From: a virus
Taxonomy: Duplodnaviria > Heunggongvirae > Uroviricota > Caudoviricetes
Virus record (IMG/VR): IMGVR_UViG_2740892027_000001
Reading direction: 5' to 3' (one strand)
DNA: 39,684 nt
The position numbers were made by a program, and so were the translations under genes. The first letter of the stretch is position 1. Each line of letters starts with the position of its first letter. Of the stretch, positions 611 to 33,345 are shown one piece after another. The notes beneath the pieces were generated by a model, which saw only the letters and a list, made by a program, of their open reading frames with translations, ran no database searches and was not told the DNA's origin.

Positions 611-1236
611 ATAGCCAGCACCTTACTGGCAGTGACGTACCGCGCGCGCCGGTCGTCGATGCCGTTCCGGCCACCATTGATAATCAGAGTTACACGTGCA
701 ATATCGCCGGTATACTTCATGCATCCTTTGCTGGCAAAGAACCACGCCGCGCTACGAGCCGCGTATTCGTCCTGCGCCAGCAGTTCAGGACTCTCCAGCA
801 GGTCAACCTTAAGACCGTTTCCACAGTCACGATAGTTATTCAAACCGGTAATCTGGATAAGTCCGCGACCACGGTAATTCCAGCCATCACCAGAGGCATT
901 GTTACCCATGCGTTTGCTGTACACCAGATTTGCGATCGCGCGCTGGCGCTCAAGTGGCAATGGTGGCTCACCAGCACGGCGGCCCAGTGCGTTAGCCTGT
1001 CCCTGGGTGAGACGCCCAGCCCGAACGAAGTTAGCCAGTCCGGTGACGCTGTAGTTGAAATTTTCCTGCAACCGGTTGAAGCCACCAGACTCATGCCCGA
1101 CCTGAGCAATAAACATTGCCTGATCTTCGGGTTTGCTGATACCAAACTCTTTCATCGCAGAAGTTATATGCGAGAACCAGCGAGCGGCCAGCGCCTCGCT
1201 AATACCAGCAGCTCGCTGGAATTGTTTAATCTCCAT
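607..1236 (-). CDS. Endolysin, glycoside hydrolase family 19 (chitinase-like lysozyme)
   Basis: Motifs VGHESGGF and YRGRGLIQITGLNNY typical of GH19 phage endolysins; start taken at MEIKQFQ (ATG 1236, GAGG Shine-Dalgarno) rather than the longer track ORF 607..1467. Confidence 0.8.
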   Translation of the reverse strand: MEIKQFQRAAGISEALAARWFSHITSAMKEFGISKPEDQAMFIAQVGHESGGFNRLQENFNYSVTGLANFVRAGRLTQGQANALGRRAGEPPLPLERQRAIANLVYSKRMGNNASGDGWNYRGRGLIQITGLNNYRDCGNGLKVDLLESPELLAQDEYAARSAAWFFASKGCMKYTGDIARVTLIINGGRNGIDDRRARYVTASKVLAI

Positions 1237-1534
1237 GTTTAGACCTCGATATTTTGAAAATATGAACAACGTTACCGCGTGTTTTAATAACCGCGGCAAG
1301 CATGACAGCGTTGATAATGACCTCAGATAAATCCACAGCCATTGGCGTGCGTAACCAGATTGCATAGACGACACGAACAGGAATACTTGCCGCAGCAACA
1401 ATAAGGAAATAAGCAAGCCACCCTCCCCATCTTCGATGTTGAGAGCCGTTACGCCGGAATGTGACAACGCGAATTGCTATGCCAGTACAAATAACTGCAT
1501 TGGTGATAAGCAAAAAAAACTCATGCGTTACCAT
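1226..1534 (-). CDS. Small membrane protein of lysis cassette (holin/antiholin-type candidate)
   Basis: 102 aa with hydrophobic segments; sits between holin-like gene and endolysin and overlaps both. Confidence 0.4.
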   Translation of the reverse strand: MVTHEFFLLITNAVICTGIAIRVVTFRRNGSQHRRWGGWLAYFLIVAAASIPVRVVYAIWLRTPMAVDLSEVIINAVMLAAVIKTRGNVVHIFKISRSKHGD

Positions 1535-1925
1535 CGTCTTTTCTCCCCGGAATTAACTCGCGTGGATTATCGGAACGGTGATAGAGCCAGATGCCAATAC
1601 GCACGGCGACAATTGCTGACACGAATGCGCCTGCAGAAAAAACAATCCCTTTTTCAAAAGAGTCCTGCGTGATGGTAGGGATCAGGCTGGCTATGCCGAT
1701 AAGAATTGATGCTGCTGGTTTGTAAAAGAGAAGGCCGCAAAGAAAGCTGATCATCGACAGGAGCACCCGGCGACGGATGGGGTACTCTACTGCAGAGGTA
1801 ACAAAAATTACCGCCCCAGCCAAAGCCCCTAAAGCAACCTCCGGAGGGACACCTGCAATAACCGCAGCAAGAGAACTAACACTAAGCCACTGATTTGAAG
1901 TTTCATTGGTTAGTTGGAATGACAT
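1521..1925 (-). CDS. Holin-like membrane protein
   Basis: 134 aa, several predicted transmembrane helices, immediately upstream of endolysin in same operon. Confidence 0.45.
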   Translation of the reverse strand: MSFQLTNETSNQWLSVSSLAAVIAGVPPEVALGALAGAVIFVTSAVEYPIRRRVLLSMISFLCGLLFYKPAASILIGIASLIPTITQDSFEKGIVFSAGAFVSAIVAVRIGIWLYHRSDNPRELIPGRKDDGNA

Positions 1926-1997
1926 AACGAAACCCGTTTATTTGCAAACACCCTGCTTCAGGAAAAGTATACCGCGCAACAACACACCATTTACGGT

Positions 1998-4460
1998 TCA
2001 ATTCCCTGTTAATTGCAAAACTTGCTCTTCCAGCTTTTTAACCCTGCGTCTCATCATCGCAGATTCCAGAATCAGAGCCTCTTCATAACGGATACCGTAA
2101 CATTCACCAGCCTCGACGGCTTCGCGTACCAGAACCTTTGTCTGTATAAGTGGGTAAACTCCTGCAGAATGCTCTTCTTCCGTCACATCCCTGTATTCTG
2201 CCGGGGTCTCATTCCACTTGTCATAACAGATAAATGCCAGTCGTGACACATCTATGCCTTCATTCTGAAATACACTGATAACATGCTGCGCAACTGCACC
2301 AAAGTGCCATCTTGCTCCGTCTTTACCTTTCACTTCGATCCTGTCAAGGTACTGGTATGAAACCCATTCCACTCTTTCCCATGCGTCCAGTATTTTCTCA
2401 TCAATAACCTCTGGAGCAGTCTTGAAACGCGCATCGGACAGCACCGTAAACGCTGACTGGGTAAATCCCCCCGACCATGCACGACCAGCCAACCCAAGAG
2501 AATAAGTATTCGTTGTCGATGGTGTCATGGCTGAATCAGAAAACTGTATATATTCTGAATTTCCAGTAGATATTCGAATATTTCCATTTATTAGCGACAT
2601 AGTGCCTTTAGTATTATCACTATTGAATAATTTCAATTGCGAACTTATACCGCCTCCCACAGCCAGAGATACATCGCCTTCAGCAAGCATTCTGAATTTA
2701 TCTGCAGAAACAAGCGTCTGGTTAGCAAGGTTAAAATATTTAACCCACCATTCAAAACGCCCTGACATAGTCCCAACGTACTGACCAAGCGCAGGGACGT
2801 GAACAACATTGCTATTTGTAGTGCCGTCTATACTGGAAATACCAGTCACCGCTGATGCAGAACTCAGAATATTATTTCTGTCACCCGGATGTTTAATTTC
2901 AACAAAGTTCCTGATACACCCTTCCTCGAAGGTAACCACGCCGGAAGAACTATACATGGGGAATATTGACGCATAATTACTGCGTGCAGCATCTAAGAAA
3001 CGAATGGTTGTAGATGTCTGCAGATCTCCTGATTCATTTTTCCCATCACACCCAGTCATTAGAATATTACTGGCAATATTATTATTTCCCTGAACGGTGA
3101 CGCCGTGCGCCTGCTTTGCGTCCGATTCAGAGTAATCAACCAGCACATCCGAAATCAGGTTACCAGTCCCCTTGCCAACAACTACTGCGGCGTATTTTGG
3201 GTTGTTAGCCATTACACTGCTAATGATATTATTCGTTGGGGCAGTTTCCGTCTCAGTTCCATTGTAAACAACGTGCTGACACTCTTCACCAATAACATTG
3301 CTGACAATGTTATATTTTGCTGCTGTTTTAAGTTCCACTGCACCAAACTGAGGATAATTTCTGGCTATCACACCATCAATTAGCGTATTTTGCGATGAAT
3401 CAAAAAGCACACAACCTGCTTTTTTATTATTTGCGAACCCTAAATACTCTCCTCTTATATCTCTAACAATGTAACCTGACGGAATACCATTATTCGGATA
3501 AGCGATCAAGCTAAATCCTGTTCCTCGCGTATTTGTAAATCTGATATTTTTAACCGATACATCATGGCCACCTGAAAATGACACCTGGTGTCCCTGCACA
3601 CTATCATCTGATTTATTTCCCATAATTGTTAGCGTACTAAGCATGCCACCATCGGGCATGTTAAAAACCAGATGATTACCATCTCTGTCATACTGTTTTA
3701 TCGTTCCCCCACCTGTTCCGTACAAGCCACAACGTGAAAGAGAAACTAAAGATGTATTGAATACCCCTTCCGGAACAAAAACACTGCTAAACGAATGTAA
3801 TGATTTTGTAAAAGCATCCTTGTTATCATTTAAGATTCCATTTTGAGCTCCAAAATCCTTAATGCTGACACCATCACGCATCTTATCCTGGAACGTTCTG
3901 TATACCGCTCCAGAACCATACTGAATAAACCAACCAAAACCACCAATAACTCCGGCGATTGCAGCATCGACATAATTACGCATTGAGCGATTATTTACAG
4001 CGTCCTGCTCAAGTGATGGATCGGCAAGGTTAGATATTCTGTTTTGCTTTGCATCGTAATATTTTGCAAGCAAAGATGGTTTCATCAATGCACGTCTGAA
4101 CCACCCAAAACATCGCTGGATCAGCATCGTCAGGTAGTCAAATGCATCCTCATGAACTTCGGGGAAAAATTTTCCCTGATTGCGAAGATCAGTCTCCTGC
4201 ACCACATCAAGCACACGCTCTATCGTGATTCGCCAGCCAGCAGCAAGCGGCGACGGAAGAACCACTGCACCGCCACTATAAGTTCCCGCCCCTGTTACCG
4301 TATAACCAGCATCCAGCACTAGTTTTGTAACGTTACCGTTAAGGTCAGACACCTGAACAACCAGGTCGGATTTTTTGAAAATACGGAAGGTATACGGAAA
4401 TGATGTCGTAACGCCGTTACCTGTGTATTCGTTGTGGTCAACTTCGGTTGAGACCGTCAT
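1998..4460 (-). CDS. Tailspike / tail fiber with beta-helix region and C-terminal intramolecular chaperone (peptidase S74-like) domain
   Basis: 820 aa; central Gly/Asn/Thr-rich repeats typical of right-handed beta-helix depolymerases; C-terminus has the LSDARFK autocleavage-type motif and chaperone-like tail; last structural gene before lysis genes. Confidence 0.8.
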   Translation of the reverse strand: MTVSTEVDHNEYTGNGVTTSFPYTFRIFKKSDLVVQVSDLNGNVTKLVLDAGYTVTGAGTYSGGAVVLPSPLAAGWRITIERVLDVVQETDLRNQGKFFPEVHEDAFDYLTMLIQRCFGWFRRALMKPSLLAKYYDAKQNRISNLADPSLEQDAVNNRSMRNYVDAAIAGVIGGFGWFIQYGSGAVYRTFQDKMRDGVSIKDFGAQNGILNDNKDAFTKSLHSFSSVFVPEGVFNTSLVSLSRCGLYGTGGGTIKQYDRDGNHLVFNMPDGGMLSTLTIMGNKSDDSVQGHQVSFSGGHDVSVKNIRFTNTRGTGFSLIAYPNNGIPSGYIVRDIRGEYLGFANNKKAGCVLFDSSQNTLIDGVIARNYPQFGAVELKTAAKYNIVSNVIGEECQHVVYNGTETETAPTNNIISSVMANNPKYAAVVVGKGTGNLISDVLVDYSESDAKQAHGVTVQGNNNIASNILMTGCDGKNESGDLQTSTTIRFLDAARSNYASIFPMYSSSGVVTFEEGCIRNFVEIKHPGDRNNILSSASAVTGISSIDGTTNSNVVHVPALGQYVGTMSGRFEWWVKYFNLANQTLVSADKFRMLAEGDVSLAVGGGISSQLKLFNSDNTKGTMSLINGNIRISTGNSEYIQFSDSAMTPSTTNTYSLGLAGRAWSGGFTQSAFTVLSDARFKTAPEVIDEKILDAWERVEWVSYQYLDRIEVKGKDGARWHFGAVAQHVISVFQNEGIDVSRLAFICYDKWNETPAEYRDVTEEEHSAGVYPLIQTKVLVREAVEAGECYGIRYEEALILESAMMRRRVKKLEEQVLQLTGN

Positions 4461-4616: not shown

Positions 4617-4636
4617 TACTGTATAAATATACAGTT
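4617..4636 (+). promoter_or_regulatory. LexA (SOS) box TACTGTATAAATATACAGTT
   Basis: CTGT-N8-ACAG with AT-rich spacer, 15/16 match to CTGTATATATATACAG; ends 6 nt before ATG 4642; an AGCAAA-N7-TTTGCT inverted repeat (4599-4617) abuts it. Confidence 0.65.
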
Positions 4637-4641
4637 ATTGC

Positions 4642-4914
4642 ATGGAGAAGATTAAGATGCAGCAGTATCACTATCCACTGGAAGAGGGATTTACCGAAAG
4701 GATTCACACGCCGGGAGGCGTCAGGTCACTGGTGGAGGGATCGCACTTGATGAAATTACTCCGGGATCTCGATAAGGATGGATTTAATGTCGATGGCCCA
4801 CTTGCCGAACTGACTGCACTGATTAACTACGTCACCAGCTCACAGATGTCTATGCGGGATCTGCAAACACATCTCGACTATTGTGCCGAACAATTACGAA
4901 AACAAACCAGATAA
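4642..4914 (+). CDS. Small antirepressor-like protein (paralog of the C-terminal domain of the Bro-N antirepressor at 5230-5925)
   Basis: 90 aa; LMKLLRDLDKDGFNVDGPLAELTALINYV...LQTHLDYCAEQL aligns with LMNLLNQLQEDGHDVSGAAAELTTMFCYI...IQTHAEYINDK of the downstream antirepressor; LexA box at promoter. Alternative start ATG 4657 with GGAG Shine-Dalgarno. Confidence 0.55.
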   Translation: MEKIKMQQYHYPLEEGFTERIHTPGGVRSLVEGSHLMKLLRDLDKDGFNVDGPLAELTALINYVTSSQMSMRDLQTHLDYCAEQLRKQTR

Positions 4915-4945
4915 GGTTTGTAATTACCAAGTGGAGTGCTTATAT

Positions 4946-4960
4946 TTACCTTTGCGGTAA
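4946..4960. promoter_or_regulatory. Operator-like palindrome TTACC-tttgc-GGTAA (full ATTTACC-N5-GGTAAAT)
   Basis: Perfect inverted repeat between the two antirepressor-type genes. Confidence 0.5.
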
Positions 4961-5051
4961 ATTTACATCGCACTCCTCTTGTGCCATAGTAATCGGGCAC
5001 TGGCAAAATCCAGTGCCGGGATTGGCGTCCCGGATTACTAAAAGGCGCATT

Positions 5052-5071
5052 CACCGCGCAAGCGGTTTTTT
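5052..5071 (+). terminator. Putative intrinsic terminator (ACCGC-gcaa-GCGGT + T7)
   Basis: Short GC stem followed by TTTTTTT; preceded by two further hairpins at 4996-5033. Confidence 0.4.
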
Positions 5072-5229
5072 TATGCGTATAGCACGGCCACATTCGTATT
5101 ATGGTGGGCTGTGTGGGGGCACCGAAAGGTGCGCCGGGTCCTTTTAGCCGGTTACGCCAACCCTGCACAGTTCACCACCAACCGATTGGCGTCGGTAGTG
5201 GTGATTAACCAGACTAAAAGGTAACCACT

Positions 5230-5925
5230 ATGACAGCTACAAAAAGCACGTCCATTTTTTCTTTCGAATCTCAAGCCGATATACGGGTAATCGTCATTAA
5301 TGGTGAGCCATGGTTTATCGCTTCAGATGTTTGTCGGGCTATAGGCATAGCAAACCATCGAGATGCTGTTCGAAAACTTGATGATGATGAGAAGGGCGTC
5401 GCTTCAACCGACACCCCTGGCGGTGAGCAAGAATCGATCATTATCTCCGAGTCAGGCCTCTACACACTGATCCTCCGCTGCCGCGATGCGGTGACACCAG
5501 GCACTATCCCCTACCGCTTTCGCAAATGGGTTACAGGTGAGGTTCTTCCTCAGATCCGCCGCACCGGAAGTTACATTAAAAACTCGCTCCCGCAGGAAGA
5601 ACGCATAAAGATGGTTGCCGACCAGGTAGCCAACGCCACGGCGTCAGCAGTAATGCAGGCGATGAAGATAGAGAACAAAACCTACAGCGCCCCGCTGAAG
5701 CCCGGCTACCGCAGCCTGATTCACTCGCCGTCTGGTGTTCTCGGCCTGACGGAAAACTCACTGCTGATGAATCTGCTGAACCAGTTACAGGAAGACGGGC
5801 ACGACGTATCGGGCGCGGCGGCGGAGCTGACCACCATGTTTTGCTACATCGTTGGTGTGAGCAAGTGCCTGCGTGATATCCAGACGCACGCGGAGTACAT
5901 CAACGACAAGGCTGGGTTCTTCTGA
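5230..5925 (+). CDS. Antirepressor with N-terminal Bro-N domain
   Basis: 231 aa; N-terminus SIFSFESQADIRVIVINGEPWFIASDVCRAIGI matches the Bro-N signature; C-terminal domain shared with ORF 4642-4914. Confidence 0.75.
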   Translation: MTATKSTSIFSFESQADIRVIVINGEPWFIASDVCRAIGIANHRDAVRKLDDDEKGVASTDTPGGEQESIIISESGLYTLILRCRDAVTPGTIPYRFRKWVTGEVLPQIRRTGSYIKNSLPQEERIKMVADQVANATASAVMQAMKIENKTYSAPLKPGYRSLIHSPSGVLGLTENSLLMNLLNQLQEDGHDVSGAAAELTTMFCYIVGVSKCLRDIQTHAEYINDKAGFF

Positions 5926-5991
5926 CGGGCGGCGGCACAGGGACGTGCCTTTAAAATAATCATTGGCGATGTGATGTAGATTCGCGTAATA

Positions 5992-6006
5992 TTACCTTAC
6001 GGGTAA
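5992..6006. promoter_or_regulatory. Operator-like palindrome TTACC-ttacg-GGTAA
   Basis: Perfect inverted repeat 39 bp upstream of ATG 6045; the 17-mer ATTACCTTACGGGTAA also occurs at 33330-33345. Confidence 0.55.
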
Positions 6007-6044
6007 ACCCCGTTTAATGGCGTTTCTATATTATGAGGTGATGT

Positions 6045-6680
6045 ATGCCACAACAACTGCTGAATCCGGCAAAGGTTACTGAAGTTTTCGCTCATCTGAA
6101 CGAAACTCCAGACAACCGCGCCCTGTATTCAGAGTTAGTGAACGGCAACGATGTCACATCTGATGTCAAAGGCGTTTCTCTGGCTCCTGGATACCGCGTT
6201 GTCCGTGTAGACGATCGTAAGAAAGGCGAGATTCCACAGGCGCACTTCGAACTGGCATTGATAAATGACCTCACCGAAGAGGTAGTGTATTACAATCGTG
6301 TCATTATCCAACCTGACAGCTATCTTAACTGCCGACCTGTCACGCAGATATTGGTATGGAGAACCCAGAAGCCTAAGCATCGTGCTGTGCTTCATGATTT
6401 CGCCGGCATCATCTTCATGAACTACCTCTTGGAACGGTACGATATCATCGTGTCAGATCGCAACCAGACTCATGAAGGCATGTCGTTCTGGCAGGCTCGC
6501 ATGTATGACGCACTGGAACTTGGCCTCCACCTCTATGGTTACGACATGATGACATGCGAGCTGATAGAGATGAATAACGAGGAAGAGCTTGAGAAAGGTG
6601 AAACCTGGTTGTGGGGTGATGCGGAAAACTTCCAAAACAGATTGGCCATAATTTCAAAGCATAAGCTGCCAATAAAATAG
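6045..6680 (+). CDS. Hypothetical protein, stand-alone accessory (moron) gene
   Basis: 211 aa, GAGGTG Shine-Dalgarno; own operator-like site upstream and strong terminator downstream; no family recognised by eye. Confidence 0.6.
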   Translation: MPQQLLNPAKVTEVFAHLNETPDNRALYSELVNGNDVTSDVKGVSLAPGYRVVRVDDRKKGEIPQAHFELALINDLTEEVVYYNRVIIQPDSYLNCRPVTQILVWRTQKPKHRAVLHDFAGIIFMNYLLERYDIIVSDRNQTHEGMSFWQARMYDALELGLHLYGYDMMTCELIEMNNEEELEKGETWLWGDAENFQNRLAIISKHKLPIK

Positions 6681-6688
6681 TTCTTTAA

Positions 6689-6709
6689 GCCCGCGGCGCG
6701 GGCTTTTTT
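6689..6709 (+). terminator. Intrinsic terminator (GCCCGCG-g-CGCGGGC + T6)
   Basis: GC-rich hairpin then TTTTTT, 9 nt after the stop of ORF 6045-6680. Confidence 0.7.
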
Positions 6710-6745
6710 GTGTCTGCGGATTCCCGCCCTGGCGGCGGTGGCATT

Positions 6746-6774
6746 CGTTAAAAACAAGGCCGCGAAAGCGGCCT
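6746..6774 (-). terminator. Intrinsic terminator on minus strand (AGGCCGC-tttc-GCGGCCT + TGTTTTTAA)
   Basis: Hairpin directly abuts the GTGACATGTCAC palindrome and follows the stop of ORF 6783-7079. Confidence 0.55.
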
Positions 6775-6786
6775 GTGACATGTCAC
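6775..6786. repeat. 12-bp perfect palindrome GTGACATGTCAC (copy 1 of 3)
   Basis: Identical 12-mer at 24324-24335 and 26589-26600; overlaps the TGA stop of ORF 6783-7079. Confidence 0.7.
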
Positions 6787-7079
6787 GTTCCTTTTCTGAA
6801 TGATAGCCATTCGAAAAATGATGACATTCCACCGCAGACAATAGCAAAGATGATCCCACCAAAGAAGAGAAGGCCAGCCTGCCACCACTCCCACCGCCAT
6901 ACATCCACAGCGCCAACCATACCAACAATCGCTCCAACAAATGGAATATAGCTCACGATGAAAGCAATGGGGGCTGCAATTATCCAGTGCAATCCCCACC
7001 ATGATTCAAGCCCAGCCATAATTGCTGCCAACTGAAAAAGACCAACGACGATATAAACAATGAATCCTATAGCTTGCAT
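6783..7079 (-). CDS. Small integral membrane protein
   Basis: 98 aa, about three hydrophobic helices; between internal virion protein genes and the antirepressor island. Confidence 0.5.
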   Translation of the reverse strand: MQAIGFIVYIVVGLFQLAAIMAGLESWWGLHWIIAAPIAFIVSYIPFVGAIVGMVGAVDVWRWEWWQAGLLFFGGIIFAIVCGGMSSFFEWLSFRKGT

Positions 7080-7274
7080 GTAGTCACCTATTTACCCAGT
7101 AAAAATCAGAGGCCTCCCCTCAATAAGGCTTGCAACAAGAACTACTCCCTGCACAACAAAGATGAACCAGCAAATAGCTTGAGTCTGAGGGTTAAGAAAA
7201 TATTTGTAGCGGTCAATAAATAACAGCCCACCAGAAATTATCACACTCAAAATAATTAAAAACACAACACTTCC

Positions 7275-14079: not shown

Positions 14080-14619
14080 TTATCGACCGGTTGGAGTGCC
14101 AACAGCAGCAGAAATCGGCGCAGCCTTCTGAGAGAATGGGCTCCACGTTCCTCCGCCCATCTGGTATGCACCGTATGCTTTTAGTGGTGCCGTTAACAAA
14201 GTGCTGGTCATCGATGATTTAGCAGCCGACTGAGCAGCAGCCCCCTGTGCCTGAGCATTCATTCCCTGAACCTGATACCCATATGCCTCACGCTGAGCAT
14301 TATTCACTGTCGTTAACGCATCAAGAGTGCCGAACTGAGCATTATCCGCAAAAACGTCAAGAGCTGTTCCGCTACTTAATTCCGCACCGGTAGCCCCCAT
14401 AGTGGCCGCCGCAGTGCCTGAGCGTTGACGCATTTCACGACGACGCTGATCCGCTTCAATATTCCCACGATTGATTGAATCCTGTGCCTGAGCTTCAGCA
14501 ATTTCAGCATTCCGATCAGCTATGGCTGACTGGTATTTTGCCTGCTTGCTCTGGCTGTACATTGACGCGGCTGTGGATGCCACTGTGACGGCAACCAAAG
14601 CGATGGCTGGGTTACACAT
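14080..14619 (-). CDS. Internal virion protein (gp14-like position), N-terminal hydrophobic segment
   Basis: 179 aa, Ala/Gln-rich, N-terminal hydrophobic helix; position. Confidence 0.45.
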   Translation of the reverse strand: MCNPAIALVAVTVASTAASMYSQSKQAKYQSAIADRNAEIAEAQAQDSINRGNIEADQRRREMRQRSGTAAATMGATGAELSSGTALDVFADNAQFGTLDALTTVNNAQREAYGYQVQGMNAQAQGAAAQSAAKSSMTSTLLTAPLKAYGAYQMGGGTWSPFSQKAAPISAAVGTPTGR

Positions 14620-15083
14620 TATTTTCTCTCCATGTGAAATCTGTGGAAATAAAGACCAAGAGCTCCATAAGGCGCGGCTTCTTCAAGCCTGAATCCAAGC
14701 CAGTGCAGCCATGCTTTGGCAACATGGTTTCGCTCGTCGACGTAGTTTTCCAGGCGCGGATAAACTGCCAGCATCTGCTGCAATACAGGGCGGCAGTGGC
14801 GCAGAAATGTCTTCTGATATTTTTCAATACGGCTGGTTCCTACCAGCCAGGGCGTACCATTGCCACCGATCATTGACGCCGGAGATACACCAAACATGGT
14901 TACCAGTTCTCCGTTCGCGAACCCTGACCAGGCCATAGTCGCAGTGCGAAGACCAACAAGCAGCGCATCTTCGGTAGTCATCAGCGATACCGCATACAGT
15001 TCGTCAATATCAGCCTGACGAACATCCGGCAAAATCATCTGAAGATGCTCTTCGGTGGCGGGAATAATTCGAACATCGATCAT
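14619..15083 (-). CDS. Virion-associated protein (gp13-like position)
   Basis: 154 aa; between tail tube B gene and internal protein genes. Confidence 0.45.
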   Translation of the reverse strand: MIDVRIIPATEEHLQMILPDVRQADIDELYAVSLMTTEDALLVGLRTATMAWSGFANGELVTMFGVSPASMIGGNGTPWLVGTSRIEKYQKTFLRHCRPVLQQMLAVYPRLENYVDERNHVAKAWLHWLGFRLEEAAPYGALGLYFHRFHMERK

Positions 15084-19367: not shown

Positions 19368-20360
19368 TTACACCACGCGGGCTTCTGTTTCCAGAAGCGC
19401 ATCAGTTTCACGGATTGGTACACCACGGAATGAAGTCCACCACTCGCCTTCTGTCTCTTTTACGCTGATCGCCAGAGATGTTTTCTCCAGAGATTGCAGA
19501 TCAAGAGCCTGGCCTACAGTGCGGTTCATGTAGAACACCGGGCGACCCATGCCACGATTTGGAATGCGATGCAGTGCTTTAACCATCAACTTCGCAATAT
19601 TTGCGGCAGAGGAAGGTTCTGAAAGATTGCTGACATCGATGTTTGCAATGCGAACAACATAACGCCAGTCACGCAGAGCAAGTCCGTTGTCCCATTTGTA
19701 ATGGGTACGGTAGCCTTCGTACTTGCCGCCATTCGCATCTTCCAGTGTCACCTGGCCTTTATCTTCCATCTGGATGCCAGCCTTCTGCCCTTTCGGGAAG
19801 ATGCCATGCACGGTGTTTTCGCCCCACACCACTAACCAGATTGAGGTGTTATCTGTACCCGTGCCACCAGCATCAATGATGTTCTGAGCATTACCCGCAG
19901 ACAGGCTGGAATAGCGGGAGGACAGTCCCATAAACTGCTGAGGGTTAACGCTGGAATCACCATAAAACAGTGTCTGCGCCATCTGCTGATTCATCGCTTC
20001 AATAAATGCGCGGTCTTCAGACAGGCGGAATTCGGCGGTATTACCGTTCAGATCAGCCAGTGACTTATCGACTTCAGCATAGGTTTCCAGCATGCCAACG
20101 TAATCGGTTACCTGCACTGTGGTTGATTTGCTTGGCTGTACGCCATAGTTCAGCAAACGCCAGGTAGCTGAAGGTAAACCAGAACGAATGGTGGTTCGGT
20201 GTCCGGTAGGAAGGTTCCCTTCGACAAAAGGCATATCCTGAAGGATCGGGTTAGTTTGACCGAGAAGCTCGATAATCTTATCGACTTTCCCGTTTGGATC
20301 GACGCGCTTACCCCAGTCAGCCAGCGTTAGCGCAGTTAAGCCTTTAACAGCCATTGTCAT
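19368..20360 (-). CDS. Major capsid protein
   Basis: 330 aa; between scaffold-like gene and tail tube genes; size typical of T7/epsilon15-type coat proteins. Confidence 0.7.
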   Translation of the reverse strand: MTMAVKGLTALTLADWGKRVDPNGKVDKIIELLGQTNPILQDMPFVEGNLPTGHRTTIRSGLPSATWRLLNYGVQPSKSTTVQVTDYVGMLETYAEVDKSLADLNGNTAEFRLSEDRAFIEAMNQQMAQTLFYGDSSVNPQQFMGLSSRYSSLSAGNAQNIIDAGGTGTDNTSIWLVVWGENTVHGIFPKGQKAGIQMEDKGQVTLEDANGGKYEGYRTHYKWDNGLALRDWRYVVRIANIDVSNLSEPSSAANIAKLMVKALHRIPNRGMGRPVFYMNRTVGQALDLQSLEKTSLAISVKETEGEWWTSFRGVPIRETDALLETEARVV

Positions 20361-32688: not shown

Positions 32689-33273
32689 ATGAAAAGTATC
32701 CAGGACGTCCGCAGGCAAAATCTCAACGACTTGATCGACCGTGAATTCAATGGTGTTCAGACGCGGATGGCAGAAAAACTTGGAACTCAGGCAAATCTGG
32801 TAAACCGCTGGGCTCTTGGTAAGAAGGTTATCGGCGATCAGGTTGCGCGAAAAATTGAAGCTGCCGCCAATAAACCCCGTAACTGGCTTGATATCGATCG
32901 CTCGCTTTCTCAGGAAGGTTTTCAGCCTGTCGGCCCAAGCGACATTGGCCAGCTGGCGGCTCACAACCTGGAACGCTGGATGAGCGAAAGCCGCGACCTT
33001 TCAACACAGGGAAAACTTCACCGCGCATCCGGCGTAGCCCAGGTGACAATCAGCCGCCTGTTAAACAATGAGGTCAGCGTTTCCATTTCCACCCTGGAGA
33101 ATGTTGCATCTGCATTCGGGCGTCACGGATATGAACTACTGATTCACCCGCACGACCCTGCAACTATCAACTATGACCGCTCGCGCTACGCATTGTTACC
33201 TGAAACAGAGAAAGCAAAGATCGAAAGTTACATTGAATTTGTCATCAACCAGAACGAAAAAAGCAAACAATAA
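32689..33273 (+). CDS. Prophage repressor candidate (two HTH domains, no S24 peptidase domain)
   Basis: 194 aa; HTH at QTRMAEKLGTQANLVNRWALGKK and a second at KLHRASGVAQVTISRLLNNEV; divergent from the cro-like gene; followed by a strong terminator. Confidence 0.6.
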   Translation: MKSIQDVRRQNLNDLIDREFNGVQTRMAEKLGTQANLVNRWALGKKVIGDQVARKIEAAANKPRNWLDIDRSLSQEGFQPVGPSDIGQLAAHNLERWMSESRDLSTQGKLHRASGVAQVTISRLLNNEVSVSISTLENVASAFGRHGYELLIHPHDPATINYDRSRYALLPETEKAKIESYIEFVINQNEKSKQ

Positions 33274-33330: not shown

Positions 33331-33345
33331 TTACCTTACGGGTAA
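33331..33345. promoter_or_regulatory. Operator-like palindrome TTACC-ttacg-GGTAA
   Basis: Perfect site immediately after the repressor terminator; same 17-mer as at 5991-6006. Confidence 0.55.

Follow-up and report, generated by a model that had tools for sequence, protein, structure and literature searches.

The window analysed here (the whole 39.7 kb stretch of IMG/VR record IMGVR_UViG_2740892027_000001) approximates the complete genome of a Uetakevirus, a temperate Escherichia coli podophage resembling epsilon15, phiV10 and SPC32H. Comparison of phage phiv142-3 with the right half of the window gives 97% identity over 84% of the length, and the gene order agrees with the phiv142-3 record. 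The minus strand carries the lysis genes, the tailspike (1998–4460), the virion and ejection proteins, the head genes and the terminase, and it is interrupted between the tailspike and an 824-residue virion protein by a plus-strand island (4642–6680). Within this island a LexA-controlled small antirepressor (small Ant), a C4-RNA-controlled BRO-N antirepressor and a gene for a 211-residue protein follow one another in that order. The last of these genes, the subject of this analysis, occupies an autonomous single-gene cassette (approximately 5963–6711) comprising a predicted promoter with its operator, a Shine–Dalgarno leader, an open reading frame and a terminator. Its promoter is predicted to answer to the phage repressor Rep, and its product is predicted to adopt a divergent GNAT-like (acyl-CoA N-acyltransferase-like) fold; anatomy, regulation class and fold, taken together, are very probably correct. 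The elements of the cassette are as follows.

5963–5992, plus strand: predicted sigma-70 promoter, read from the sequence, with −35 TTGGCG (5963–5968), an 18-nucleotide spacer and −10 TAATAT (5987–5992).
5991–6007: 17-base-pair Rep/CI-type operator ATTACCTTACGGGTAAA, with the core palindrome TTACCTTACGGGTAA at 5992–6006.
6035–6040, plus strand: Shine–Dalgarno sequence GAGGTG, 4 nucleotides before the ATG, conserved in SCU-125 and IAI39.
6045–6680, plus strand: coding sequence of 211 residues, with an ATG start and a TAG stop.
6687–6711, plus strand: intrinsic terminator AAGCCCGC-GGC-GCGGGCTT followed by TTTTTGTG, located by sequence scan and folding.

The ATG of the coding sequence is considered the correct start because the N-terminal motif MPxxL (here MPQQL) is kept in 30 of 30 aligned homologues and the GAGGTG ribosome-binding element is present. 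At the other end of the gene, the terminator consists of an 8-base-pair stem with six GC pairs (6687–6705) and the following TTTTTTGTG, with a folding energy of −13.4 kcal/mol, and this stem and T-tract form the top terminator-like site between 4400 and 7400, a range in which ten such sites stand against an expectation of 2.7. On the right, the homology boundary of the cassette falls at about 6712–6760, while its left breakpoint is the operator itself (5991–6007). No LexA box was found near 5992, the only perfect box of the island being that at 4619, and an Rfam scan of 5900–6750 returned just a sub-threshold Trp_leader match lying on the terminator. Moreover, no compositional anomaly was found in the cassette, whose GC fraction of about 0.48 is like that of the rest of the phage.

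The operator belongs to a set that extends across the genome. With at most one mismatch allowed, the window holds 14 copies of the motif TTACC-N5-GGTAA where 0.52 would be expected, and none of 100 shuffled sequences reaches 14. Rep-type sites lie at 4333, 4565, 4946, 5992, 23351, 26478, 26496, 30208, 30270, 32571, 32602, 32619, 33331, 33393 and 39520, all within one mismatch of the motif except 32602, which has two. Three of them are placed between cro (start 32534, minus strand) and Rep (32689, plus strand), two more sit just 3′ of Rep and ahead of the early-left operon, and further copies are found 5′ of the small terminase gene, a replication-region gene, a DUF1064 gene, int and the tailspike. 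Each of the three plus-strand genes of the island is likewise preceded by one (4565, 4946 and 5992). The 15-base-pair core at 5992 is identical to that of the site at 33331, just 3′ of the repressor gene, and the site matches without a mismatch the genus-typical operator consensus annotated in epsilon15, ATTACC-N5-GGTAA(T); the epsilon15 record AY150271.2 labels ATTACC-N5-GGTAAT sites at equivalent places as 'protein_bind: repressor, lysogeny'. In phiv142-3, which lacks the 211-residue gene, ten exact operator copies occupy the same backbone positions. Collectively, the operator set suggests that Rep would directly silence many promoters, not PL and PR alone.

At the cassette promoter, the last T of the −10 element TAATAT is the first operator base at 5992. 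This abutment (marked here by a slash) is shared with the promoter Pant of the BRO-N antirepressor unit (TTGTAA-17-TATATT/TACC, called by the scan) and with the early-left promoter (TTGACA-17-AATTAT/TACC). The geometry is also kept in diverged cassettes, namely those of IAI39 and Phi05_2388B (TTGCAG-17-TACTAT/TACC), of phage LLS (TTGGCT-17-TACTAT/TACC) and of a Dickeya prophage (TTGCAT-17-TAGGAT/TACC). Since the operator overlaps the −10 element, Rep is predicted to occlude the −10/+1 region, leaving the 211-residue gene silent in the lysogen and switching it on with the early genes.

The components on which this regulation would depend are encoded in the same genome:

4565–4579: sister operator between the tailspike start and small Ant, the epsilon15 equivalent being annotated at 19895–19911.
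4619–4634: perfect LexA box CTGTATAAATATACAG, directly 5′ of the small Ant open reading frame.
4642–4914, plus strand: small Ant, 90 residues, homologue of the SPC32H antirepressor Ant (PDB 5d50_E, E 6e-47).
4946–4960: sister operator overlapping Pant (TTGTAA-17-TATATT), the promoter of the C4-RNA/BRO-N antirepressor unit.
5230–5925, plus strand: BRO-N antirepressor, downstream of the C4-RNA region.
32689–33273, plus strand: Rep, the presumed operator-binding repressor, homologue of SPC32H Rep (PDB 5d50_A, E 3.5e-42).

The homology of Rep and Ant to the SPC32H proteins, the LexA box and the epsilon15 annotation together identify the 5992 site as a probable Rep operator in a phage induced through LexA, Ant and Rep in turn. 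Rep has two helix-turn-helix domains, and no S24 peptidase (autocleavage) domain was found in it; the LexA box and small Ant, combined with a repressor of this kind, are predicted to constitute the SOS input of the phage. The mechanism of the SPC32H Rep tetramer and Ant is summarised in PMC9638917. For small Ant, the ATG at 4657, preceded by GGAGAAG, is probably the better start. Additionally, Rfam models score above threshold at 4984–5182, 5′ of the BRO-N antirepressor (isrK, 77.9 bits; C4 antisense RNA, 77.7 bits), and a match to the a1/b1 target element in the same region reaches 45.1 bits, just below the gathering score of 46.7. This region and the BRO-N antirepressor are predicted to form a c4-ant module like that of P1/P7 immI behind the Rep-operated promoter (4918–4946; operator 4946–4960). 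The LexA box and the C4-RNA signals thus indicate that the island holds two antirepressors under different control.

These results bear out most of what the initial annotation had described: a 211-residue frame with a good Shine–Dalgarno sequence, a strong terminator at 6689, an operator-like site at 5992 and a self-contained cassette adjoining the antirepressor genes, placed on the opposite strand within the late genes. Its proposal of control by the phage regulator is likewise upheld, as the operator is of the phage repressor's own type, judged from the epsilon15 annotation and from the sites around Rep and cro.

Exact copies of the palindrome 5′ of homologues in LLS, in a Yersinia myovirus prophage and in Dickeya had raised the idea that it is intrinsic to the gene family, through autoregulation or a host factor. 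This was ruled out: a single one-mismatch site was found 5′ of 34 other homologues, phiv142-3 retains every site although it lacks the gene, and the LLS cassette is the second allele of the Uetakevirus slot, moved together with its promoter-operator. Different perfect palindromes stand upstream of other family members, specifically TGTATTGTACAATACA in Yersinia (6929–6990, besides a Rep-type site), GTTATCAATTTGATAAC in Photorhabdus and ATAATCAAAAATTGATTAT in Serratia, which hints that each family cassette may be wired to its local regulator.

The distal end of the antirepressor island is a variable cargo space, and the cassette is horizontally exchanged. Among 5,426 complete E. coli genomes, the flanks are present in 443, the 211-residue gene in 13 and a second allele in 8, and the phage collection holds no record with the gene at the DNA level. 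The second allele, about 30% identical in protein sequence, occupies that slot, again behind this promoter-operator, in Uetakevirus Phi05_2388B (3001–3632) and in the eight E. coli genomes (IHE3034, APEC O18 and GPEC128-620 among them); in Phi05_2388B, an unverified record, the frame is split in two by a frameshift or a sequencing error. In the lambdoid phage LLS (42000–42800) the second allele follows Rz together with its promoter and an orphan operator, no related repressor and no other exact operator site having been found in that phage. In phiv142-3 the slot contains three tiny unrelated open reading frames with an operator ahead of them, and in epsilon15-like prophages of Dickeya and Klebsiella the family gene directly follows small Ant. 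Two alleles of 30% identity alternating in one slot form a pattern typical of conflict genes. In IAI39-type prophages, whose antirepressor is a different one, the 5992 operator is the exact point from which homology to the window begins, suggesting that the operators may act as recombination joints between modules. Separately, two operator copies in IAI39 (5826–6056) flank a 10-codon mini-ORF (MRKFDEYEGV) 5′ of the cassette.

Beyond this slot, the protein belongs to a large family. The initial annotation had called it an orphan, a description overturned by a cluster count of 99 at 90% identity (Enterobacterales and Pseudomonas) and of 937 at 50% identity (E ≤ 1e-3). The exact 211-residue protein is found on 51 contigs, to which close variants add several hundred; the family also occurs on 41 plasmids, where the neighbourhoods of its members are uninformative. 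Among prophages, one homologue lies among the tail genes of an E217-like Yersinia prophage. In all contexts inspected the family gene is single and without a partner, and the longer family members offered nothing convincing as fusion partners. In PHROGs the protein falls into phrog_1349, function unknown, and all sources annotate the family as hypothetical; no match to an ordinary structural or housekeeping phage protein emerged. Sequence and profile searches of Pfam, NCBIfam and the PDB gave no match for the 211-residue protein or for 124 diverse members, PADLOC-DB v2 gave no match to the 211-residue protein at E ≤ 1, and no paper that characterises the family was found in the literature. The protein is soluble and acidic, with an isoelectric point (pI) of 5.3 and a grand average of hydropathy (GRAVY) of −0.39; no membrane segment was found in it, the maximum 19-residue Kyte–Doolittle mean being 1.07.

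The structure prediction that the initial annotation had proposed returned a GNAT-like fold, so that its finding of no recognisable motif stands for the sequence libraries and falls at the level of structure. The model (predicted local distance difference test score, pLDDT, 85.9; predicted template-modelling score, pTM, 0.81) adopts a mixed alpha/beta GNAT fold, and Foldseek searches against the PDB and BFVD retrieve GNAT/NAT_SF proteins and also phage proteins that are uncharacterised, one of them from Agrobacterium phage Atu_ph07. Members of the GNAT superfamily such as NatD/Naa40, HAT1 and the C-terminal domain of ICL2/Rv1916 are alike in predicted fold at 3–15% sequence identity to the 211-residue protein, from which they differ in that the model adds two N-terminal helices and an insertion at 173–190. 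The best-conserved segment of the family, S-D-x-x-Q-T-x-x-G-x-x-F-W (137–149; with (S) before F in one rendering), forms a strand-loop-helix element in which G145 and W149 are more than 90% conserved among the 124 diverse members; several aromatic and His, Asp and Arg residues are also strongly conserved. In the model, this segment may be the equivalent of the acetyl-CoA loop. An hhalign comparison with an approximate E. coli RimI sequence places G145 on the last Gly of the GNAT motif A at a non-significant probability of 0.07%.

Taken together, a cassette with its own promoter and Rep operator that supplies the phage with an early-expressed acyltransferase is the explanation we favour, and as a whole statement we hold it tentatively. 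In the lysogen, Rep would occlude the promoter. The gene would fire together with the early genes once Ant has taken Rep away following SOS, or in a newly infected cell that has no Rep. The soluble product would then transfer an acyl group, from acyl-CoA or possibly from an aminoacyl-tRNA donor, onto a target of the host or of a rival element. The phage would profit from such a transfer as lytic growth sets in, by counter-defence or host takeover, in much the manner of AcrVA5, a GNAT anti-CRISPR. Assignment to this functional class, an acyltransferase of counter-defence or host takeover, is possible and should be regarded as doubtful.

Several observations weigh against this explanation. The predicted promoter at 5963–5992 scores 8 of 12, under the threshold of the scan, and was not called by it. 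Morons expressed in the lysogen classically have this build, a cassette closed by a terminator of its own. Lone chromosomal homologues without an operator occur in Photorhabdus, Xenorhabdus, Enterobacter and Pseudomonas, and homologues at classic prophage cargo positions (a P2-type portal gene, int), also lone and without an operator, look like host-beneficial moron cargo. Concerning the fold, the Foldseek TM-scores are modest (0.3–0.43), the exact GNAT motif A, Q/R-x-x-G-x-G/A, is not evident in the 211-residue protein, and no sequence profile in Pfam (Acetyltransf_*), NCBIfam or the PDB ties the family to GNATs.

The observations on architecture and distribution also feed the main rival, in which the gene is a moron of benefit to the lysogen, serving anti-phage defence, superinfection exclusion or lysogenic conversion and expressed usefully from the prophage despite the operator, or derepressed when the antirepressor of an incoming phage titrates Rep. 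We consider this unlikely. The moron architecture, the presence/absence polymorphism in the cargo slot and the lone chromosomal copies in many species would all suit it, as would homologues at cargo or defence positions, which adjoin the portal gene at the border of a P2-like Pseudomonas prophage, int in a 186-like Serratia prophage and, in a Plesiomonas island, a type I restriction-modification system. It is harder to reconcile with an operator that abuts the −10 element as at lytic promoters, with the lack of a PADLOC match, with a soluble protein that, unlike exclusion proteins of the Sie and Imm types, is without a membrane segment, and with structural relatives in other phages, that of Atu_ph07 included. 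Moreover, superinfection-exclusion, defence and lysogenic-conversion genes normally need expression in the lysogen. The cargo placement proposed in the initial annotation therefore survives as regards the variable slot (flanks, gene and second allele in 443, 13 and 8 genomes), whereas exclusion, defence and conversion as classes of cargo are left unsupported, because lysogen expression conflicts with a promoter predicted to be occluded by the repressor.

Since motif A is not clear and a profile link is missing, the protein could also be a non-catalytic member of the GNAT fold, acting as a binder or regulator or as a small-molecule sponge, perhaps to tune the Rep/Ant switch or to sequester a host factor. 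A stable position right after small Ant in prophages of E. coli, Dickeya and Klebsiella would be in keeping with such a role; the strong conservation of 137–149 and of the aromatic, His, Asp and Arg residues, which looks like an active or cofactor site, and the occurrence of the family far from any Rep/Ant system make it quite unlikely.

Two further alternatives retain catalysis. The insertion of the model at 173–190, an extra strand-helix before the last strand, invites comparison with Mom of phage Mu, a phage accessory GNAT-fold enzyme of similar size that has a beta6–beta7 insertion and does not use acetyl-CoA (PMC13219725), and both are single-gene cassettes on a phage. A Mom-like enzyme of the acyl-CoA or aminoacyl-tRNA kind would modify nucleic acid, marking phage DNA or host RNA to evade restriction. 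Homology to Mu Mom was rejected, with an hhalign probability of 0.2% and a BLASTP E value of 0.04 over 21 residues, and the acidity of the protein (pI 5.3) is unfavourable for nucleic-acid binding, while its expression is predicted to be early, not late; this reading is very unlikely. The other alternative, a GNAT-type translation toxin (a tRNA acetyltransferase like TacT or AtaT) within an addiction or abortive-infection module, is extremely unlikely. No adjacent antitoxin gene of the GNAT-RHH type (as for TacT, AtaT and KacT) was found in the window or in about ten other contexts inspected, chromosomal copies that stand alone are tolerated, the sequence shows no similarity to GNAT toxins, and a toxin activated at induction would hurt the phage's own growth.

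Several neighbouring features adjoin the cassette without forming part of it. Two small hydrophobic proteins encoded on the minus strand end the ejection-protein operon, at 6783–7079 (98 residues) and 7092–7265 (57 residues); the first, a membrane protein, falls into phrog_3075 and has a weak holin-like Pfam match, and its gene, convergent with the cassette, has the following terminator.

6757–6774, minus strand: terminator of the membrane-protein gene 6783–7079, separate from the cassette terminator.

The position of this pair recalls the sieA/hkc region of P22. On the other side of the island, the tailspike (1998–4460), a protein of 820 residues, combines a beta-helix with a Peptidase_S74 chaperone domain. 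Its place is taken in IAI39 and SCU-125 (921–4399) by a 1,039-residue endosialidase-type spike in prophages that are otherwise near-identical, which indicates a host-range module exchange adjoining the cargo slot. Further away, a 154-residue protein (14619–15083, minus strand) occupies the position of gp13 of epsilon15, whose record annotates gp13 as a GNAT-family acetyltransferase in the virion and ejection module. The phage may thus carry a second, unrelated GNAT-like protein; an hhalign comparison of the 211-residue family profile with the protein at the gp13 position was not significant.

If the favoured explanation is true, a large unannotated family joins the short list of enzyme-type phage accessory effectors. 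The family would also gain a clear regulatory handle, in that a single operator connects the family gene to the Rep–Ant lysis-lysogeny switch, and the natural allelic series, in which one slot receives either of two diverged alleles or one of several unrelated cargos, eases genetic tests. On a more modest scale, a 'hypothetical protein' present on well over a thousand enterobacterial contigs becomes a testable candidate for the GNAT fold. In addition, the Rep operator set of a phiV10-like phage has been mapped in full. A broader proposal, speculative and on balance unlikely, is that PHROG 1349 and about 900 related clusters represent an unrecognised class of acyltransferase effectors borne by mobile genetic elements (temperate and possibly virulent phages, plasmids and islands) that modify a host immune component, a nucleic acid or tRNA. 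In Uetakeviruses such effectors would act as Rep-wired immediate-early counter-defence, and the two alleles would reflect arms-race diversification.

Among known systems, the cassette is closest in architecture to morons in the sense of Hendrix and Juhala, which are autonomous promoter-gene-terminator insertions classically expressed from the prophage. It shares with them its own promoter and terminator, a location between conserved backbone genes and both presence/absence and allelic polymorphism, and differs in that its promoter instead carries the operator of the lysogenic repressor. AcrVA5, a GNAT anti-CRISPR of about 90 residues that acetylates Cas12a, offers a functional analogy for the favoured hypothesis, as a single gene with a GNAT fold borne by a mobile element and directed against host immunity; AcrVA5 is much smaller than the 211-residue protein, and no match to it in sequence or in specific structure emerged, without a search aimed at it. 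Mom of phage Mu is a GNAT-fold DNA adenine modifier that uses Gly-tRNA (PMC13219725, PMC7261163), and it resembles the gene studied here as a phage accessory single-gene GNAT-fold enzyme of about 210–230 residues with an insertion in the C-terminal half and dedicated regulation. Mom is expressed late under Com, in contrast to the Rep-operated and predicted early expression of the 211-residue gene, whose product is acidic. With respect to the SPC32H/epsilon15 Rep–Ant module (PDB 5d50), Rep and Ant each have a homologue in the window, and both epsilon15 and phiv142-3 are without the 211-residue gene, which supplements the Rep regulon without being among its described components. The moron cassette, the epsilon15/SPC32H operator regulon and the GNAT fold are thus each of an already known kind, whereas two results are new: the connection of this family with the GNAT fold and with the Rep regulon, and the alternation of two deeply diverged alleles in one slot.

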